UHGV virus genome: UHGV-0315315
DNA length: 14,378 nt
Source: a virus
Direction: 5' to 3' (one strand)
Position 1 is the first letter of the stretch; every line of letters begins with the position of its first letter. Shown here piece by piece: positions 720 to 9,249 of the stretch. The notes under the pieces are model-generated. The model had not been told where the DNA came from. It did no database searches and saw only the letters and a list, made by a program, of their open reading frames with translations. Made by a program: the position numbers and the translations under genes.

Positions 720-1286
720 TCAGGGGGATTCATTGATCTTATTTGCCGGAAATTTTCTATAAATGGTAGAAACGCCTACATCAAAAATCAGTGCAATACG
801 CTGTCTTGATTCTCCGGCCTCGAGTAAACGCCCAATCTGTGCCCACTGTTCGGTGGTCAACTTAGGACGGCGTCCACCTACTCTGCCTTTGGCACGAGCT
901 GCAGCCAGCCCTGCCCTGGTACGTTCAACTATCAGTTCGCGTTCCATTTCAGCCAGGGCACCCATGACATGAAAAAAGAAACGGCCCATTGGGGTACTGG
1001 TATCAATACTGTCAGTCAGGCTTCTGAAATTCACACCACGCTGGCGCAACTCTTCTATCAGCGTAACAAGATGCCGCATACTGCGCCCCAACCTGTCCAG
1101 CTTCCAGACAACCAGCGTGTCTCCTGCCGATAGTGTCCTGAGTAGTTTTTTCAGCCCCGGTCTGTCGGACTTAGTGCCACTGATTTTGTCCTCAAAAATC
1201 CGCTCACATCCCGCGCAGTTCAGTGCATTACGTTGCAAATCGGTGTTCTGGTCATTTGTTGACACGCGTACATAGCCAATAAGCAT
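720..1286 (-). CDS. Serine DNA invertase (Gin/Pin/Cin/Hin family)
   Basis: Track ORF 720..1292 begins at a TTG; the first ATG is at 1286 (MLIGYVRVSTNDQ...). Catalytic-serine motif GYVRVSTNDQ of resolvase/invertase recombinases and a C-terminal HTH-like tail (GVSTIYRKF). Near-colinear with remembered Pin/Gin sequences. Confidence 0.9.
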   Translation of the reverse strand: MLIGYVRVSTNDQNTDLQRNALNCAGCERIFEDKISGTKSDRPGLKKLLRTLSAGDTLVVWKLDRLGRSMRHLVTLIEELRQRGVNFRSLTDSIDTSTPMGRFFFHVMGALAEMERELIVERTRAGLAAARAKGRVGGRRPKLTTEQWAQIGRLLEAGESRQRIALIFDVGVSTIYRKFPANKINESP

Positions 1287-1341
1287 GATCAATCCCCTGA
1301 ATAAAAACCGGGGATGATGCCAGTTAGCCGTTATCTCTGCA

Positions 1342-1367
1342 TTTTCATAAACGTTGGTTTTGGAGAA
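1342..1367. repeat. Left crossover site of the invertible segment (hix/gix-like 26-bp site)
   Basis: TTTTCATAAACG-TT-GGTTTTGGAGAA. Its reverse complement matches the site at 3088-3113 at 21 of 26 positions (hand alignment). Half-site resembles the TTATCAAAAACC-type consensus of Hin/Gin sites. Flanking similarity continues to about 1377. Confidence 0.7.
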
Positions 1368-1649
1368 GGTGCTAACTGGGTTATGTTACCTGGAGGAATG
1401 ATAATTCAGCGTGTTTATCTTGGATTTCCTATTGGCACCAATGCAAGACACATAACTTTCCCCCGGTCGTTTACAACAACGAACTATTCCATCTCAATTA
1501 ACTGGAATGATATCGGTACTGTAACAACTGAAACACAATCACCAGCAAATGTGGCGGTTGTTCATCAAACAAAATCATTAACAGGGGCCAGCATCTGGCA
1601 GGCAGGTCCCGGGGGATTTAATGTGGACATTATAGCGGTGGGGTATTGA
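1368..1649 (+). CDS. Alternative tail fibre C-terminal cassette (Hv'), silent in this orientation; no start of its own
   Basis: Reading frame runs through the left crossover site. The motif VGFGEGA here parallels LGLGEGA at H residues ~350-356, which overlaps the right crossover site. Would be joined to the constant part of H after inversion. The track Met at 1314 lies upstream of the site and is probably not used. Confidence 0.55.
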
Positions 1650-1650
1650 T

Positions 1651-2079
1651 ATGTACGTATGGAGCGCTAAATCAAATGGCTTTTTCCCCATATCGGAGAA
1701 AGAAAAATTTGAGGCATCAGGTCTGTGGCCTGATGATGGTGTAATAGTCAGTGAGGAAGAACATAAAAAGTTATTTATGGATATTCCACCAGGAAAACAG
1801 ATTGGAACACTGAATGGAAAACCAGCACTGATAGATATTCCTCAGCCGACCAAAAAGGAATTAATAGCTATTGCTGAAGTTAAAAAATCCCAATTACGGG
1901 AAAAAGCTGACAGTGAAATATCCTGGCGTCAGGATGCTGTTGATGCTGATATCGCAACTGATGAAGAAACTTCAACTCTCACCGAATGGAAGAAATACCG
2001 TGTGCTGCTGATGCGTGTTGATACTTCAACAGCACCCGATATTGAATGGCCTACGCCTCCGGCAGTTCAGGCCAGATGA
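1651..2079 (+). CDS. Alternative tail fibre assembly chaperone (Tfa'), partner of Hv'
   Basis: 142-aa ORF starting at an ATG that overlaps the Hv' stop (TGATATG). C-terminus ...[13 protein letters not shown] parallels the C-terminus of the minus-strand chaperone (...[13 protein letters not shown]), a conserved Tfa/gpG-type tail. Confidence 0.75.
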
Positions 2080-2644
2080 CATCCGGCGCGGTGCTGGTAT
2101 CTGTTGCCGTCACCGCGTCAATGTAATCCAGCACGGTGTTAAGTCGGGTTGTTTCTGCCTGAGTCAGTTTCCGTCCGGCCTGTAATTTCAGCTGAATCAG
2201 ACTAATGGAAGCCATTACTGCATCAATCAGTGACTGGCGCTGTGCTTCTGCTGCTTCTACTGCGGCACCGTGTTGTGCCTCAGTATCTGTCACCCATTTC
2301 TCACCATCCCATTTATCATATGGCGTTAACGGTGAAAGCGTGACATAACCGTTTTTGATGGCACCGATATAATCCACTGTAACAGCTGCGCCATTTTCTG
2401 TTGAGTAAACAGTCTCATTGCGATGGTCTTCTTCATGGCTCCATCCCTTACCCGTAAATACTGCCACTTTCCCCGGAATGTTTTCGCCCGGGTCAATACC
2501 AGTGGAACAGGCGGGCATACTTACGCCAGTATTAATATATTCATCAGACCAGCCCGTATACTCAGATGTTTCAGCATCATAATAAAAACAACGCATATCG
2601 CCCGGCACTGTGGCCAGCCCATTTTCATCAAAAACAGGTTTCAT
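2051..2644 (-). CDS. G: Tail fibre assembly protein (P2 G-like)
   Basis: 197-aa ORF. ATG overlaps the H stop (TAATG). Conserved Tfa C-terminal motif. Its 3' end overlaps the convergent Tfa' 3' end (2051-2079). Confidence 0.85.
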
Positions 2645-4149
2645 TATTTAGCCCTCACCAGAAAGTTAAATGCAATATTTCGCGGTCTGACAGCAACAAA
2701 ATTCACACCATCACCCACAGAGTTACTGGTGAAATTAAATCGTGAAAATCCTGGCTGATTTCCGGCGATGCCATCATGAAAGTTAATTGCGTGTCCCGCA
2801 CCTCCGCCTATATTCCCGGCAAACTGAGAAAAGTTTGTAGCTTCCTGCCAGCTTAATAATTCGCGACCACCGTCTGCACCTCGCCCGTCATCCCAGATAC
2901 GAATGAAATCACCGCGGGCTTCAGGTAATATCAGCGAAGGAAACACTTTCGCCAGCACAGGATAATCAGTGGCAGAGAATTTCGCGCCGTTGAACTTCAA
3001 AAACACCATACTGGACCAGCTGTCGATTACAGTATTTGGCATTGCAGCGGACGGCCAGAAGAACGGAACGCCAATAGCTGGAGCACCTTCTCCCAAACCA
3101 AGGTATGTGAGAAGACCAGCTACATCCTTTCCACTCAAATTGGTAAGCGTATTGTCCAGCGGTTGTTTACCTGCCAGCGCATTAAGCATTGTCGTGGCAA
3201 AGTTCGGATCATTCCCCAGTGCCGCCGCCAGTTCGTTCAGTGTATCCAGTGCAGCAGGTGCAGAACCCACCATTCCTGCAATCGCCGATTTCACAAAAGC
3301 CGTAGTGGCAATCTGTGTATTGTTGACCGACTGCGCCGCCGTGGGGGCTGTTGGCGTTCCGGTGAGTGCCGGACTCGACAACGGTGCTTTAAGTGCCAGC
3401 GCATTGTTAATGGTGGTACTGAAATTCGGATCATTGTTAATGGCTGCGGCTATTTCTTTCAGCGTGTCCAGCGTGGCTGGCGTACCATTAATAAGGGCCG
3501 TCAGTGCCGCCTGTACAAACGCAGTGGTCGCAACCTGCGTGGTATTATTCCCCGCCGCTGGCGTTGGCGCTTTGGGGGTTCCGGTAAATGTCGGGCTGGC
3601 TTTTGGCGCGTACTGTGAATGCGGGTCCGGTGCGGCAAGATGTTTTGCCATCTGATCATCCGCGTACACCTTCAGCTCCAGTGCCTTGTCATCCACATAC
3701 TTGCGGGTTGCCAGCACTACAGCAGGGTCGATTTTCAGGGTGATATTGTCCGTGCTGCTGGTAATCAGCACCATGCGCACGGTCTGAGTGCGCCCGCTAC
3801 CTTCAGCCAGTTGCGGCTTATAGCTTTCCGGGCAGTTGCCCACAGCAATCAATGCCCCGGACTCATCAAACAAGCCCACTTCACGTATCCACCAACCGCC
3901 CTCGTTTTCAGGGATCACCTGTTCGGCAATAATCTGGCTGCTGTTCTGCGGGTCGATATAAAGCATATTCAGCGCAGCCCGGCGTTTCTCATTTACCAGT
4001 GCCGTCTGCTTTGCGTCCGGCGTTGGCAATACTCCACCGCCATCGCCCACCGCCATATAGGTAATTTTTAGCGGCACACCGAGCGCGGCGGCGCTGGCAA
4101 GTTTCGCCGCGCCAATATCCGTCAGCAGGGTATAAAATTTTGTGCTCAT
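2644..4149 (-). CDS. H: Tail fibre protein (P2 H-like): constant N-terminal part plus currently fused variable tip
   Basis: 501-aa ORF. Repeated ...NNTQ(V/I)ATTAFV... units typical of phage tail fibre repeats. Position upstream of the chaperone gene; crossover site embedded at codons ~346-354. Confidence 0.9.
   Translation of the reverse strand: MSTKFYTLLTDIGAAKLASAAALGVPLKITYMAVGDGGGVLPTPDAKQTALVNEKRRAALNMLYIDPQNSSQIIAEQVIPENEGGWWIREVGLFDESGALIAVGNCPESYKPQLAEGSGRTQTVRMVLITSSTDNITLKIDPAVVLATRKYVDDKALELKVYADDQMAKHLAAPDPHSQYAPKASPTFTGTPKAPTPAAGNNTTQVATTAFVQAALTALINGTPATLDTLKEIAAAINNDPNFSTTINNALALKAPLSSPALTGTPTAPTAAQSVNNTQIATTAFVKSAIAGMVGSAPAALDTLNELAAALGNDPNFATTMLNALAGKQPLDNTLTNLSGKDVAGLLTYLGLGEGAPAIGVPFFWPSAAMPNTVIDSWSSMVFLKFNGAKFSATDYPVLAKVFPSLILPEARGDFIRIWDDGRGADGGRELLSWQEATNFSQFAGNIGGGAGHAINFHDGIAGNQPGFSRFNFTSNSVGDGVNFVAVRPRNIAFNFLVRAK
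3088..3113. repeat. Right crossover site of the invertible segment, inside the H coding sequence
   Basis: TTCTCCCAAACC-AA-GGTATGTGAGAA; inverted relative to 1342-1367; central AA dinucleotide as in hix-type sites. Confidence 0.7.
3157..3603. repeat. Tandem duplication (~222 bp, ~74 codons, two copies) inside the tail fibre gene
   Basis: H residues ~184-257 and ~258-331 are two diverged copies (SPTFTGTPKAPTPAAGNNTTQVATTAFV...DPNFSTTINNALALKAPL versus SPALTGTPTAPTAAQSVNNTQIATTAFV...DPNFATTMLNALAGKQPL). Corresponding DNA direct repeats are visible on the plus strand. Confidence 0.7.
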
Positions 4150-5652: not shown

Positions 5653-5998
5653 TCTCTGCTCCTGTTGATACGGAAAGGGAAACAGGCACACCGTTATTAC
5701 GCCGCCCGGTCAGCCCCACCACCATTGAACCGTCAAAATTGCTTTTAATGGTGATGGAATCCAGCGTCAGCCGTGGCTCCCAGCGACTCAGCGCCACATA
5801 CACTGCCGACATGACCTGCAGGCGTAATGCCGGATTTTGTGGCTGGTCTATCAGTGCCGACAGCAGGGAACCATATTCCCGACGGGCAATGCGGCTACCC
5901 TGCGGCGTCAGCAAAATGTCCCGCACCGACTGGCGCAGATGGTCAATATCAGTAATGGCTTTACCGCTGGTATTGTTCATCCCGCTATAAAGCGTCAT
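5639..5998 (-). CDS. W: Baseplate wedge protein (P2 W-like, gp25 / lysozyme-like fold family)
   Basis: 119-aa ORF; ATG overlaps the V stop (ATGA); size and position typical. Confidence 0.85.
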   Translation of the reverse strand: MTLYSGMNNTSGKAITDIDHLRQSVRDILLTPQGSRIARREYGSLLSALIDQPQNPALRLQVMSAVYVALSRWEPRLTLDSITIKSNFDGSMVVGLTGRRNNGVPVSLSVSTGAENGSD

Positions 5999-6573
5999 AC
6001 CGGGCCTCCGGTTGTGTCGCCGCCTTTCAGGACGCCAGTATGCTGATGTGCATCAACCACAATTCCGTTAGAACTCATTGCACCGCCGCCCTGGGTAACA
6101 CCACCATTGATCACTACTTCGCTGTTAATGCGTGTGCGGTCAGCCTCCAGTACAAACTCACTGGTTTTCAGGGTGATGTTGTCGGCAGCTTCAATGACCA
6201 TGGATTTGATTCCCCTGACATACCAGCGCCCGGTAGCGGGTTCGTATTCAAACCAGCCACCGTCAGGATGTTCTGTCACACAGGCGTCCACCGACGCCGA
6301 CGGTGGTGCGAACTGATTCGAATAGACAGCGGGCAGCGCAAAGGCGGTTTCCAGATTGCCGCCCAGACTCAGCAGCACCACCTGCTCACCTTCCGATGGT
6401 CGCCACCATGTGCGGGCATTACCCGCGCGCAGCGTCAGCCAGTTAATCCAGTTGGTTTCAAGGTCGCCCGTTTTCACCCGACAAAGCCAGTGTTCCCGGT
6501 CCACTTCGGTGACTACACCAGTGCGGATCAGGTTGGTGATAAGGCGCATGATTTCGGTTAATTGTGCGTTCAT
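5995..6573 (-). CDS. V: Baseplate spike / assembly protein (P2 V-like)
   Basis: 192-aa ORF; N-terminus MNAQLTEIMRLITNLIRTG resembles remembered P2 V; first gene of the V-W-J-I-H-G block. Confidence 0.85.
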   Translation of the reverse strand: MNAQLTEIMRLITNLIRTGVVTEVDREHWLCRVKTGDLETNWINWLTLRAGNARTWWRPSEGEQVVLLSLGGNLETAFALPAVYSNQFAPPSASVDACVTEHPDGGWFEYEPATGRWYVRGIKSMVIEAADNITLKTSEFVLEADRTRINSEVVINGGVTQGGGAMSSNGIVVDAHQHTGVLKGGDTTGGPV

Positions 6574-6619
6574 AATTTAATCATGCCGAGATAAGATTGA
6601 TAAAAAAACTCTTTAGTTT

Positions 6620-6637
6620 TGTGCCAGTTATGATACA
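6620..6637. promoter_or_regulatory. TGT-N12-ACA dyad in the divergent V / ATPase intergenic region; possible late-promoter activator site (PV-like)
   Basis: tgtGCCAGTTATGATaca read directly. Located where a PV-type promoter is expected, but its centre is only ~55 nt from the V ATG, so spacing is not canonical. Confidence 0.25.
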
Positions 6638-6673
6638 AAGTGCATTTACTCATGGACTAAATAAAGGATTCCT

Positions 6674-7933
6674 ATGTTTAGATTATCTAGTGTCAAGATT
6701 GAAGGTTTTTGGGGAAGACTAAATGCATCATGTTCATTTAATGAAGATGTAAATATTATTATTGGTCGAAATGGGACCGGTAAAACAACCTTTATGAATA
6801 TTCTTCACTCAGTTCTGGCATTAGAACTCGAATCACTAAATGAGAATAGTTTTGATAATGTAACAATAAAAATAAAAGAAGGAAGCAAAACTAAAACAAT
6901 AAAAGTTGTGAGTAAATTTGACATAACTAAAGCTTTGCCTACGTTTGAATATACAATTTCTAGAAAGAAATATATTATCAGATCCTTTGAAGATCGTAGA
7001 CTACCTATTTATATGAGGAGAAAATATCAGGAAGACGTTGAAAAACTTAAATTAGAGTTAGATAAATTAGTTGCTTTATCTTCTCTATCAGTTTACCGAC
7101 TTAGAAGCGGTGAAGATTTTGAAATCAGAGACAAATATGGCTCAAAATTAATCAACCCTGTTGATTACCGATTAGAACAATTATTGCAGAACCTAACAAA
7201 ATATCAACTTTATTTATCACAAAGAGCTCGTGATGTTTCTGCAATATTACAGAAAGAGGTTCTTGCTTCTATTCTTTATAGTAAAGAAGATGGTATCGAT
7301 GACACATTTAACTTTTCTTTTGATAAAGAAAAAGAACGTAGAAATTTAATAGCTGCATATTCTCAGCTTGGAGCTTTTGATAGTGATGTCAGAAAGAAGA
7401 TTAACTTTCACGTTGAATCTATTGCCAAAACATTTGAAGAATTACGACTTGCAGAAAAAAATAACAGAAATATTTTAAATGTAGATTACAGATCATTTGA
7501 GGCATTACGAAAGACGCAAAGAATTATAAAGATGTCTTTAAAATCCGAGGAGAAAATAAAAAACATATTTCTTCCTATAAATCTATTTTTAGAAACATTA
7601 CATGAGTTCATAACCGATAAAAAATTTAATTTTATCTCCGGTGAGCTAGTAATAGAAAACGAGCATGGGCCGATTAGCCATAGTAATTTATCGTCTGGTG
7701 AAAAACAGCTATTAATTCTTTTTATTGAAACTTTGCTACAGCAAAACAAACCTTTCATCTATCTTACTGATGAACCAGAATTATCGCTACATATTGCATG
7801 GCAACGAAAAATAATACCTGCAATCAAACAACTTAATCCTAATGCGCAAATTATCGCCGCTACGCATTCACCAGAAGTGGCTTCTAAATATCGAAATGCA
7901 ATCTTTGATATGGAGAAATTGGTTCATGGATGA
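6674..7933 (+). CDS. ariA: ABC-type ATPase (AAA_15/AAA_21-like, SMC/OLD-related); AriA-like component of a PARIS-type defence system
   Basis: 419-aa ORF. Walker A GRNGTGKTT (6764-6790), ABC signature-like LSSGEKQ (7688-7708), Walker B FIYLTDEPE (D366/E367 at 7769-7774), H-loop AATHSPE. K/E-rich probable coiled-coil insert between the lobes. AGGAT 5-9 nt before the ATG. Strongly AT-rich compared with flanking phage genes. Confidence 0.7.
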   Translation: MFRLSSVKIEGFWGRLNASCSFNEDVNIIIGRNGTGKTTFMNILHSVLALELESLNENSFDNVTIKIKEGSKTKTIKVVSKFDITKALPTFEYTISRKKYIIRSFEDRRLPIYMRRKYQEDVEKLKLELDKLVALSSLSVYRLRSGEDFEIRDKYGSKLINPVDYRLEQLLQNLTKYQLYLSQRARDVSAILQKEVLASILYSKEDGIDDTFNFSFDKEKERRNLIAAYSQLGAFDSDVRKKINFHVESIAKTFEELRLAEKNNRNILNVDYRSFEALRKTQRIIKMSLKSEEKIKNIFLPINLFLETLHEFITDKKFNFISGELVIENEHGPISHSNLSSGEKQLLILFIETLLQQNKPFIYLTDEPELSLHIAWQRKIIPAIKQLNPNAQIIAATHSPEVASKYRNAIFDMEKLVHG

Positions 7934-8777
7934 TTTCCATTATTCTGCCGAAGCAGAAAATGTAATGAATTTATTTTACCAAGCTGAAGCCATGGTTTAT
8001 GTTGAAGGCCCAGATGATATTTGCTTTTGGGAAATCATCTTTAATAAAGCTAGTTCATTAAAGGTTGAAATCAAAGATGTTGGCGGCTGTGAAGAATTAA
8101 AAAAATATATTGATAGAGTTACTGATGAAGATCTTCAAATTATAATTGCATGTGATGCAGACTTCACTACATTTGAAAATGAGGAAAACGCTGATAGTCG
8201 CATTGTAAAAACTTATGGGCACTCCATCGAAAACACGTTTATTGACAAAACAGGCATATATAAGGCAATAAAAACTCTCGGAAAATTACCTCAAAAGATA
8301 ATGAACGATGTCAACGTCGATTCTTGGACAGAAGACTTTTATACCAAAATGGAACCCCTAATAAAACTTGATATATACAATCATATTTATAGAAAAGGCA
8401 TTTCAGTTATTGGTGACAGTGCAGATCGTTTCATGAAATCTAGAAAATCAAATGAAATTTGCGAGCAAAAAATCACGAGTTACAAAAACACCATCATTGA
8501 AAAATTAGGTGTGGAACCAGATAACATCGATTCATCTTTCAAATCAAAATCGATAGAATACAGAAAGTGGCTTAGAGGTCATTTTCTTTTTTCTGCAGTA
8601 CATAGGTACATTAGCACAACTGCAGAAAAAAATGGAAAAAAAGTATCCTTATCATATGAATCATTATATTCCAATTTAATGAATACATTTGAATCTAATT
8701 TTACCAATGCTCATATTGAGTTTAATCATTACCACGAAAAAATTAAAGCCATAAATATGCCACACGAAATGAAATAA
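7926..8777 (+). CDS. ariB: Toprim / DUF4435-like protein (OLD-family nuclease-like); AriB-like effector of a PARIS-type system
   Basis: Track ORF starts at an internal in-frame ATG at 7842 inside the ATPase gene. Preferred start is the ATG at 7926 overlapping the ATPase stop (ATGGATGA) with GGAG ~10 nt upstream. Candidate Toprim acidic residues: E in YVEGPDD (8004-8006) and DxD in IIIACDADF (8154-8162). No HNH or zinc-finger pattern seen. Confidence 0.6.
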   Translation: MDDFHYSAEAENVMNLFYQAEAMVYVEGPDDICFWEIIFNKASSLKVEIKDVGGCEELKKYIDRVTDEDLQIIIACDADFTTFENEENADSRIVKTYGHSIENTFIDKTGIYKAIKTLGKLPQKIMNDVNVDSWTEDFYTKMEPLIKLDIYNHIYRKGISVIGDSADRFMKSRKSNEICEQKITSYKNTIIEKLGVEPDNIDSSFKSKSIEYRKWLRGHFLFSAVHRYISTTAEKNGKKVSLSYESLYSNLMNTFESNFTNAHIEFNHYHEKIKAINMPHEMK

Positions 8778-8779
8778 GA

Positions 8780-8799
8780 AAAAATACAGATGTATTTTT
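8780..8799. terminator. Candidate bidirectional hairpin between the convergent Toprim gene and S
   Basis: aaaaataca-ga-tgtattttt, a perfect 9-bp inverted repeat followed by a T-run on the plus strand. The stem is A/T-only, so predicted stability is low. Confidence 0.25.
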
Positions 8800-8802
8800 A
8801 TA

Positions 8803-9249
8803 TTATTTAGATAACCATTCAAATAGGGTATCCTTGATTTGATAATATTCTTTATCGTGGATACCCAATAGCTTACGCTCTGCGTAACGGACCTCAGGTC
8901 CTTTGCGACTGACGCGATCACGCAGGCCGTAGTGATGAACGCGGGCAATGCGCTGCACCTTGCCTTCAAACTGCACGCTGGCAGAATCGGCGCTGGCGGC
9001 AGTTTTCAGGTATTTTGTGGTGCGCAGCTTCGCAAACATCTGACGTTTAATGCGGCCTTTTTTACTGCGTGCTGTTACCCGTCGCGGTTCATAGCTGCTG
9101 CCGTCAGGGTTGCGCTGCATCCTGATATTCTGCTGCTGTGTCCGGCGAAGTTCCTGCGCCAGTTGGCGCATCATACGGCTTCTTGCGGCTGGCTCCAGAT
9201 TCGCCAGCAAGGCACTCAGCCAGTCGTCCACCTTCTGCAATTCAGCCAC
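8803..9249 (-). CDS. S: Tail completion / virion morphogenesis protein (P2 S-like)
   Basis: 148-aa ORF; start codon is GTG at 9249, overlapping the R stop; family recalled from sequence. The last ~20 codons lie in AT-rich sequence. Confidence 0.8.
   Translation of the reverse strand: MAELQKVDDWLSALLANLEPAARSRMMRQLAQELRRTQQQNIRMQRNPDGSSYEPRRVTARSKKGRIKRQMFAKLRTTKYLKTAASADSASVQFEGKVQRIARVHHYGLRDRVSRKGPEVRYAERKLLGIHDKEYYQIKDTLFEWLSK

Follow-up and report, generated by a model that had tools for sequence, protein, structure and literature searches.

What is the function of two genes that lie on the plus strand, within an AT-rich island, in a phage morphogenesis operon which is otherwise read from the minus strand? 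This question is raised by the UHGV virus genome UHGV-0315315, of which we analyzed a stretch of 14,378 nucleotides (this whole stretch is called the window in the following). A sequence-only reading had suggested that the two genes, situated between the tail genes S and V, form a defence cassette of the PARIS type, i.e., an ABC ATPase (AriA) followed by a Toprim/DUF4435 protein (AriB). We consider it very probable that the island is a divergent but complete PARIS (phage anti-restriction-induced system) defence operon, which a P2-like prophage carries in its orf30 slot as cargo for lysogenic conversion. The gene structure, the family membership as judged by hidden Markov models (HMMs) and by fold, the intact catalytic motifs, the conserved pairing of the two genes and the accessory status of the island were established in this analysis.

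The window represents the late region, comprising morphogenesis and lysis genes, of a P2-like (Peduoviridae) Escherichia coli prophage. Across the island the window is matched with 99.9% identity by a 20-kb stretch of E. coli CUVET24-CCU22, for which RefSeq lists from right to left portal, terminase, scaffold, capsid, L, X, holin, lysozyme, LysB/C, R and S, then two plus-strand genes, and after these V, W, J, I, the tail fibre and further genes. The Peduoviridae phage record vB_EcoM-813R9 has the same arrangement. The island itself (6574..8802, 2,229 bp) occupies the place of P2 orf30, with gpV on one side and gpS on the other, and has a GC content of 0.309 compared with 0.541 in the rest of the window. 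Exactly two substantial open reading frames (ORFs) are found in it, both on the plus strand; the first spans 6674..7933 and the second ends at 8777, so that the arrangement read from the sequence was correct. With its position between gpS and gpV, its accessory nature and its foreign composition the island has the properties of P2-like cargo at the orf30 slot. The cassette is present at 99.7–99.9% identity in 18 complete E. coli genomes, obtained from dogs, cattle, humans and the environment, and in one phage record (vB_EcoM-813R9), and is therefore far beyond a chance arrangement.

An ABC ATPase followed by a Toprim protein

The first gene, ariA (6674..7933, plus strand), codes for an ABC/SMC-type ATPase of 419 amino acids, the putative sensor. 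Its best model in PADLOC-DB is AriA (PDLC04164, E-value 5.7e-40). In Pfam the protein matches AAA_21 (8e-23, 82 bits with a cut-off of 27), AAA_15 (1.6e-17, 65 bits with a cut-off of 32) and also SMC_N. A phmmer search against the sequences of the Protein Data Bank (PDB) found the solved AriA of the PARIS-2 system of E. coli B185, chain 8ux9_B (6e-17). When the AlphaFold model of the protein (predicted local distance difference test, pLDDT, 82) was compared with the PDB by Foldseek, places 1 to 14 were all taken by AriA chains, with E-values down to 6e-19, template modelling (TM) scores of about 0.58/0.62 and 16–20% identity. The ABC motif set is complete, as had been noticed before, and consists of Walker A GRNGTGKTT (residues 31–39, with K37), the signature LSSGEKQ (339–345), Walker B LTDEPE (364–369, with D366/E367) and the H-loop ATHS (396–399, with H398). 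The full set is invariant or nearly so across 50 homologues. Between the two ATPase halves the segment from about residue 161 to 312 is predicted to be helical in the AlphaFold model; the K/E-rich coiled coil that had been proposed to split the ATPase is, however, not especially enriched in K/E, the fraction being 0.18 versus 0.19 in the N-terminal part.

An ATPase of this kind could also be part of another defence system of the AAA_15/21 group that acts on DNA and not on tRNA: Septu or a retron (PtuA with an HNH protein), Gabija, AbiL with RloB, MADS3-4 or a split class 1 OLD system. Gene 1 indeed also matches the PADLOC models for PtuA, mad3 and the retron I-A ATPase with E-values of 1e-15 to 1e-23, and the NCBIfam matches, all below threshold, are to PtuA (6.6e-18, far below the cut-off) and to ABC-transporter models. 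In the fold ranking the AriA chains are followed by retron and Septu PtuA and then by Rad50/SMC. In PADLOC, however, the three competing ATPase models trail AriA by at least 16 orders of magnitude, and the GajA models rank well below AriA too. It is the partner protein that decides between these systems.

This partner is encoded by ariB (7926..8777, plus strand), a DUF4435/Toprim protein of 283 amino acids and the predicted effector nuclease. The longest ORF of gene 2 would give 311 amino acids, but the true protein is shorter and starts with the ATG at 7926 within ATGGATGA, which gives an overlap of 8 nucleotides with the ariA stop. The RefSeq annotation of the 99.9%-identical E. coli prophage uses the same start at 7926, and the overlap with the ATPase stop had been recognized from the letters alone. 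In PADLOC-DB gene 2 is matched by AriB (PDLC02983, 2.3e-24, the best model, and PDLC04165, 1.2e-9) and by the fused AriAB model and by nothing else, in particular not by PtuB/HNH, GajB, RloB or mad4. Pfam assigns it to DUF4435 (1.1e-25, 91 bits with a cut-off of 27), and NCBIfam has no match for it. Thus the profile-HMM search which had been proposed as a check, for AAA_15/AAA_21 and for DUF4435 and the PARIS families, was positive for both proteins, with AriA and AriB as top PADLOC matches and the Pfam scores above the curated cut-offs, in line with the proposed membership in the PARIS family.

The AlphaFold model of gene 2, computed from an alignment of 50 homologues, has a pLDDT of 93 and a predicted TM-score of 0.90. 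Its top two Foldseek matches in the PDB are the AriB chains 8ux9_A (1.2e-5) and 8v46_D (6.6e-5) with 15–16% identity, which stem from the two cryo-electron microscopy studies of PARIS. The next matches are the C-terminal Toprim regions of OLD proteins (6njw/6nk8) and GajA, with E-values at least 600-fold weaker. The non-Toprim or HNH fold that had been named as the outcome speaking against PARIS was therefore not seen. A profile–profile comparison by hhalign with B185 AriB, whose sequence is given in Table S2A of Rousset et al., extends over 196 columns (E 7e-5) and pairs the window motifs VEG(P)DD, CDADF, GHSIEN and RGHF..LFSA with VEGRHD, CDREF, GHSLEN and RGHT..LFSA of B185. Of the Toprim pattern, YVEGPDD (residues 25–31) and IACDADF (74–80) had been found before. 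The residue numbers given then (E55/D105/D107) refer to the 311-residue ORF and are off by 28, the correct ones being E27/D77/D79, and the third acidic motif, SIENTF with E102, had been overlooked. The two-metal acidic residues of B185 AriB are E26, D30, D88, E90 and E122 (PMC11464382). In the hhalign alignment they correspond to E27, D31, D77, D79 and E102 of the window protein, and these five positions are invariant in 50 homologues with identities down to 28%.

The readings as HNH/Septu, Gabija, AbiL and MADS were rejected on the partner protein, gene 2 being DUF4435/Toprim. For a Septu or retron PtuAB system the HNH partner PtuB would be expected, and gene 2 gave no HNH match. OLD-family nucleases such as P2 Old (class 1), and Gabija GajA (class 2), follow the same logic of ABC ATPase plus Toprim, the modelled Toprim fold of gene 2 resembles the OLD C-terminal regions and GajA, and PARIS is itself counted as class 4 of the OLD family (PMC11464382). 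OLD and GajA, however, have ATPase and Toprim in one polypeptide, whereas the window has two separate ORFs and a DUF4435 protein with a C-terminal helical domain of its own. The island holds just the two genes and includes neither a third gene such as the helicase gene gajB nor a reverse transcriptase nor a non-coding RNA. Scans of the whole window for Rfam families and for tRNAs were empty, so that there is no associated non-coding RNA or decoy tRNA. Taken together, we regard a DNA-directed system of this group as extremely unlikely.

For the PARIS reading the conservation of the gene pair is of importance. The order ATPase then DUF4435 is kept in five other genera (Enterobacter, Cronobacter, Yersinia, Shewanella and Pasteurella), and in every one of them an ATPase of 418–429 amino acids directly precedes the AriB homologue. 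The overlap of 8 nucleotides is retained in the first four and is a gap of 9 nucleotides in Pasteurella. The identities of AriA/AriB to the window proteins are 83/69, 79/63, 64/43, 49/37 and 42/29% (loci L004, L005, L008, L010 and L011); AriA is more conserved than AriB at all five loci, and both proteins diverge together, which agrees with the reported co-evolution of ariA and ariB (PMC11464382). P2-like prophages of Enterobacter bugandensis and Cronobacter sakazakii have the pair in their V–S slot. Yersinia enterocolitica has a 64%/43%-identical cassette beside a CI repressor, near the Phage_GPA/Phage_RepB replication genes of a P2-type element. The clade therefore uses at least two cargo positions near P2-type phage genes. 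In Shewanella and Pasteurella the setting is chromosomal with no phage genes nearby.

A search of 1.84 billion cluster representatives with the AriB profile gave, counted in clusters formed at 50% identity, 315 with E<=1e-30 and 864 with E<=1e-10, nearly all matches being full-length (270–290 amino acids); the corresponding search with AriA gave more than 4,800 matches. Within AriB, conservation peaks in the Toprim core (residues 21–40), and the most variable stretches belong to the helical half at the C-terminus. In the model for B185 the C-terminal region contributes to tRNA recognition (PMC12409363). Since the least conserved stretches lie in this half, the target specificity of the window AriB may differ from that of B185. 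Within the ariB coding sequence there is also a terminator-like hairpin (8562-8587, plus strand), in which a T-run follows a stem of 11 bp (-14.9 kcal/mol, z -3.2) and which is perhaps fortuitous.

Distance from the validated PARIS systems

The best structural match of both window proteins is the B185 PARIS-2 system (PDB 8UX9, 8V45-8V49), which comes from a P4-satellite hotspot and likewise is a two-gene operon in which the gene for an ABC ATPase precedes that for a DUF4435/Toprim protein. The ATPase motifs and the five acidic Toprim positions are common to both systems; K39 and E393 of B185 AriA correspond to K37 and E367 of the window. The window proteins are shorter, 419 and 283 amino acids compared with 464 and 308 in the published sequence table. 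Both operons are carried by mobile elements of the P2/P4 system, one in the S–V slot of a P2-like phage and the other in the P4 hotspot.

A clear difference concerns the contact of the two proteins. In B185, R28/R31 of AriB form a salt bridge with D401/E404 of AriA above the ATP sites, and this contact was shown to be needed (PMC11464382). At the equivalent positions the window system has P29/I32 in AriB and A375/R378 in AriA; the respective regions are AriB G28-I32 (8001-8021) and the AriA A375/R378 region (7788-7810). These interface residues proved important in B185 and do not define the family as a whole. In the clade alignments, R378 of AriA is kept in at least 90% of the sequences and so is D30 of AriB, and a charge-swapped contact between the two residues is conceivable from this conservation. 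Since the identity to B185 is only about 16–20% and the published salt-bridge residues are not conserved, the window system is, on the sequence comparison, a distinct and large PARIS clade.

The second validated system, PARIS-1 of E. coli O42 (Rousset et al. 2022), shares the architecture of the window system, and the N-terminal motif of its AriB is of the type 'VFEGxDDY', which is nearer to 'YVEGPDDI' of the window. In hhalign the alignment of the two AriB proteins is confined to 97 columns of the Toprim core (E 1.2e-4, probability 56%), and the window system is about equally far from B185 and from O42. The notion that PARIS comes from P2/P4 hotspots holds insofar as B185 and O42 stem from the P4-satellite hotspot, whereas the P2 hotspot of Rousset et al. 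is gpA–gpQ and not S–V (PMC9122126). For this gpA–gpQ hotspot the supplementary tables of that study, as far as they are available, list PARIS of the O42-like type (PMC9122126). Both the O42 system and the P2 gpA–gpQ PARIS sit in hotspots other than the one found here. The motif strings of the window proteins and their RefSeq accessions were not found in these supplementary tables, two of which are partial.

How the system would work can be described by analogy with B185 (PMC11464382, PMC12409363). The cassette, which has gene S, the last of the O late operon, on one side and the pV promoter on the other, would be transcribed antisense to the late genes. AriA would form head-to-tail dimers which assemble into a hexameric scaffold, and this scaffold would hold the Toprim nuclease AriB in an inactive state. 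Upon superinfection a phage protein would bind to AriA and, with ATP turnover, AriB would be released. The free AriB would dimerise and act as a two-metal-ion endoribonuclease nicking host tRNAs in the anticodon stem–loop; translation would stop, the infection would be aborted and the population of lysogens, and hence the prophage, would be protected. Cleavage of the tRNA anticodon stem–loop and the abortive phenotype are established for B185 only (PMC11464382, PMC12409363), and the same applies to Ocr as trigger and to tRNA-Lys/Thr/Asn as targets. For the window system it is from this analogy that we infer the stoichiometry, that AriB is sequestered and released, that it cleaves tRNA and that the infection is aborted.

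Several results weigh against a functional PARIS operon. Besides the low identity to B185 AriA and AriB and the missing salt bridge, neither phmmer with gene 2 nor a profile of 50 homologues reached a solved AriB among the PDB sequences at E<=1, and fold search and hhalign were therefore used for AriB. The TM-score of the gene 2 model with AriB is moderate (about 0.54/0.51), and the hhalign probability for B185 AriB is only 63%. Within 100 nucleotides upstream of ariA a consensus promoter scan called no sigma-70-like promoter, and O42 PARIS-1 is silent from its native promoter and needs an artificial one for activity (PMC9122126). The first of these points agree with the earlier remark that the system is possibly a divergent member, as among the sequence methods a solved AriB was reached by profile–profile comparison only (E 7e-5).

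The points on expression lead to another explanation, namely that the genes are of PARIS ancestry but do not work as defence here, being either silent AT-rich cargo (e.g., repressed by H-NS) or fulfilling some other task for the phage, for example addiction or prophage stabilisation. A recent preprint from 2026 reportedly describes silencing of AT-rich immunity loci by H-NS, and the island has a GC content of 31%. Moreover, there are just 35 nucleotides between the presumed activator site of pV (see below) and the start of ariA, a consensus promoter is missing, as just mentioned, and the O42 precedent fits as well. Expression of ariAB in the lysogen is thus uncertain. Yet both reading frames are intact and the catalytic residues are kept, also in homologues down to 28% identity, which argues for purifying selection on activity; the near-identity of the cassette in the 18 genomes of such different sources speaks against this explanation as well. 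Against a toxin–antitoxin addiction role in the family stands that deletion of ariA or ariB is not toxic in B185 (Rousset et al., PMC9122126). We therefore hold a non-defensive role to be improbable and retain the reading as a PARIS defence operon.

The system is recognized by standard defence HMMs and represents a known family at a known cargo site in a known type of phage. Our findings do not overturn the current understanding; they add a well-supported and abundant PARIS clade which is carried by a temperate phage. This clade is a natural comparison for studying how the AriA sensor diversifies, in what way AriB is retained and then set free, and which tRNAs serve as targets. The remaining interest lies in the unconserved AriA–AriB interface, in the trigger and target of the clade and in the modular unit of S tail, cargo and pV promoter described in the next section.

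The S–V slot and its cargo

The island is anchored on its left by the baseplate spike gene gpV (5995..6573, minus strand; Pfam Phage_base_V 6.1e-18 plus the gpV Apex motif; RefSeq 'phage baseplate assembly protein V') and on its right by the tail completion gene gpS (8803..9249, minus strand; Pfam Phage_tail_S 4.9e-41; annotated 'tail completion protein GpS'). P2 itself carries orf30 at the equivalent position, also antisense to the late genes, between the annotated terminator of the O operon and the activator-binding site of pV. The S–V slot is thus the long-known orf30 horizontal-transfer locus of P2, which is listed among three classical regions of this kind in P2-like phages (PMC3091744, PMC6823313); a survey from 2026 mentions defence hotspots within P2 tail genes (PMC13586616). 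The best-studied P2 hotspots lie elsewhere (gpA–gpQ, Z/fun and CI-proximal), and old/tin is a further cargo position of P2 apart from orf30. The cargo in the window is the two-gene PARIS system and not orf30. Homology of the cargo to P2 orf30 was rejected, as the DNA of P2 matches the window with 64–74% identity in a few late genes and nowhere across the island. In the cited literature on the P2 loci we found no account of PARIS at the S–V slot, nor of a swapped unit spanning the C-terminus of S and the pV promoter.

For a view on the variability of the slot we compared 80 sibling loci from IMG/VR (L013-L092) with a gpV at least 96% identical. In 45 of the 80 the slot is empty and the gap between S and V measures 68 bp, and 31 carry AT-rich inserts, which fall into 18 size classes from 550 to 2,229 bp. 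As two size classes share one gene, there are at least 17 kinds of cargo besides PARIS, the PARIS cassette itself being present in three of the 31 insert-bearing siblings. With a single exception the inserts are oriented antisense to the late genes. A morphogenetic role of the island was rejected, because most siblings lack it. Six of the ten larger cargo proteins have PADLOC matches (PDC-S15, PDC-S49, AbiU, SIR2/LmuA-like, PDC-S59 and an AriAB/GajA-like fusion; loci L034, L036, L055, L062, L077 and L084), the fusion being an ATPase–Toprim protein of 598 amino acids. With so many alternative AT-rich cargos, several of them recognized by PADLOC, the S–V slot behaves as a hotspot for defence cargo. 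That this defence-cargo slot is now documented together with its many alternative fillings is useful for mining new systems. The cargo proteins at L015, L042, L046 and L069 (304–481 amino acids) gave no PADLOC match and are candidates for new defence genes.

The exchange involves more than the intergenic insert. After the motif RYAERxLLG the tail of gpS, about 19 codons, differs according to the type of cargo and is identical in the three PARIS contigs. In the window these last 19 codons and the stop (8803..8862, minus strand), encoding the tail IHDKEYYQIKDTLFEWLSK, have a GC content of 0.267 as against 0.53 for the whole of S. For each of the at least 17 cargo types both the S tail and the TGT-N12-ACA dyad of the pV promoter are specific, and the conservation among the siblings resumes exactly at ATGAACGCA, the start of V. 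The end of gpS and the region of the pV dyad are thus included in the unit that is exchanged. The locus L077 with its PDC-S59 cargo retains the S tail of the empty site and looks like a simple insertion.

A further-reaching proposal, which we regard as possible but doubtful, combines this exchange with the divergence of the proteins. It states that the clade has a rewired contact between sensor and effector, another set of RNA targets and a trigger other than Ocr, and that the S–V cargo is swapped as a module. The acidic patch of AriA and the basic helix of AriB known from B185 would possibly be replaced by the charge-swapped pair R378/D30, the fast-evolving C-terminal domain of AriB may recognize a different set of RNAs, and the clade may respond to triggers other than DNA mimics of the Ocr type. 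The module may begin with the 19 codons at the end of the essential tail gene S and further contain a terminator, the defence genes and a pV promoter of its own depending on the late activator. If this is true, defence cargo and control elements of the late genes are inherited together.

Control elements and neighbouring features

The dyad TGT-N12-ACA, TGTGCCAGTTATGATACA, is located at 6621..6638 on the minus strand, 35 nucleotides upstream of the ariA start in the divergent control region. Its centre is 56.5 nucleotides upstream of the V ATG. The pV activator site which is annotated in P2 has its centre 55.5 nucleotides upstream of the V start, and the transcription start of V is annotated to coincide with the start codon. 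In every cargo variant a TGT-N12-ACA is found at the same place, about 55 nucleotides upstream of the V ATG, with a sequence that differs per variant, and in the Enterobacter PARIS locus (cassette 83%/69% identical) the dyad and its flank are identical to those of the window. Judged by its sequence and position, the dyad is a probable activator site of the Ogr type for the late promoter pV.

On the other side of the cassette, between the convergent stops of ariB and S, there is an AT-rich hairpin (8780..8799) with U-runs on both strands, which is a candidate for a weak bidirectional terminator. It folds with -6.9 kcal/mol on the plus and -5.5 kcal/mol on the minus strand (z -3.6 and -4.4, respectively, compared with shuffled sequences). 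A consensus terminator scan did not call this hairpin, and P2 has its annotated O-operon terminator at the equivalent place.

Outside the island a gene for a serine DNA invertase is found at the Z/fun position (720-1292, minus strand; Resolvase 2.3e-53). Adjoining it are inverted repeats of 19 nucleotides (1355-1373 and 3082-3100, 95% complementary), which flank an apparently invertible tail-fibre segment. Between the repeats there is an alternative C-terminus of the fibre (1314-1649, plus strand, Gp53-like_C) together with two tail-fibre chaperone genes in opposite orientation (1651-2079, plus strand, and 2051-2644, minus strand). The invertase and the repeat-flanked fibre segment (720-3100) look like a host-range switch of the Gin/Cin type.

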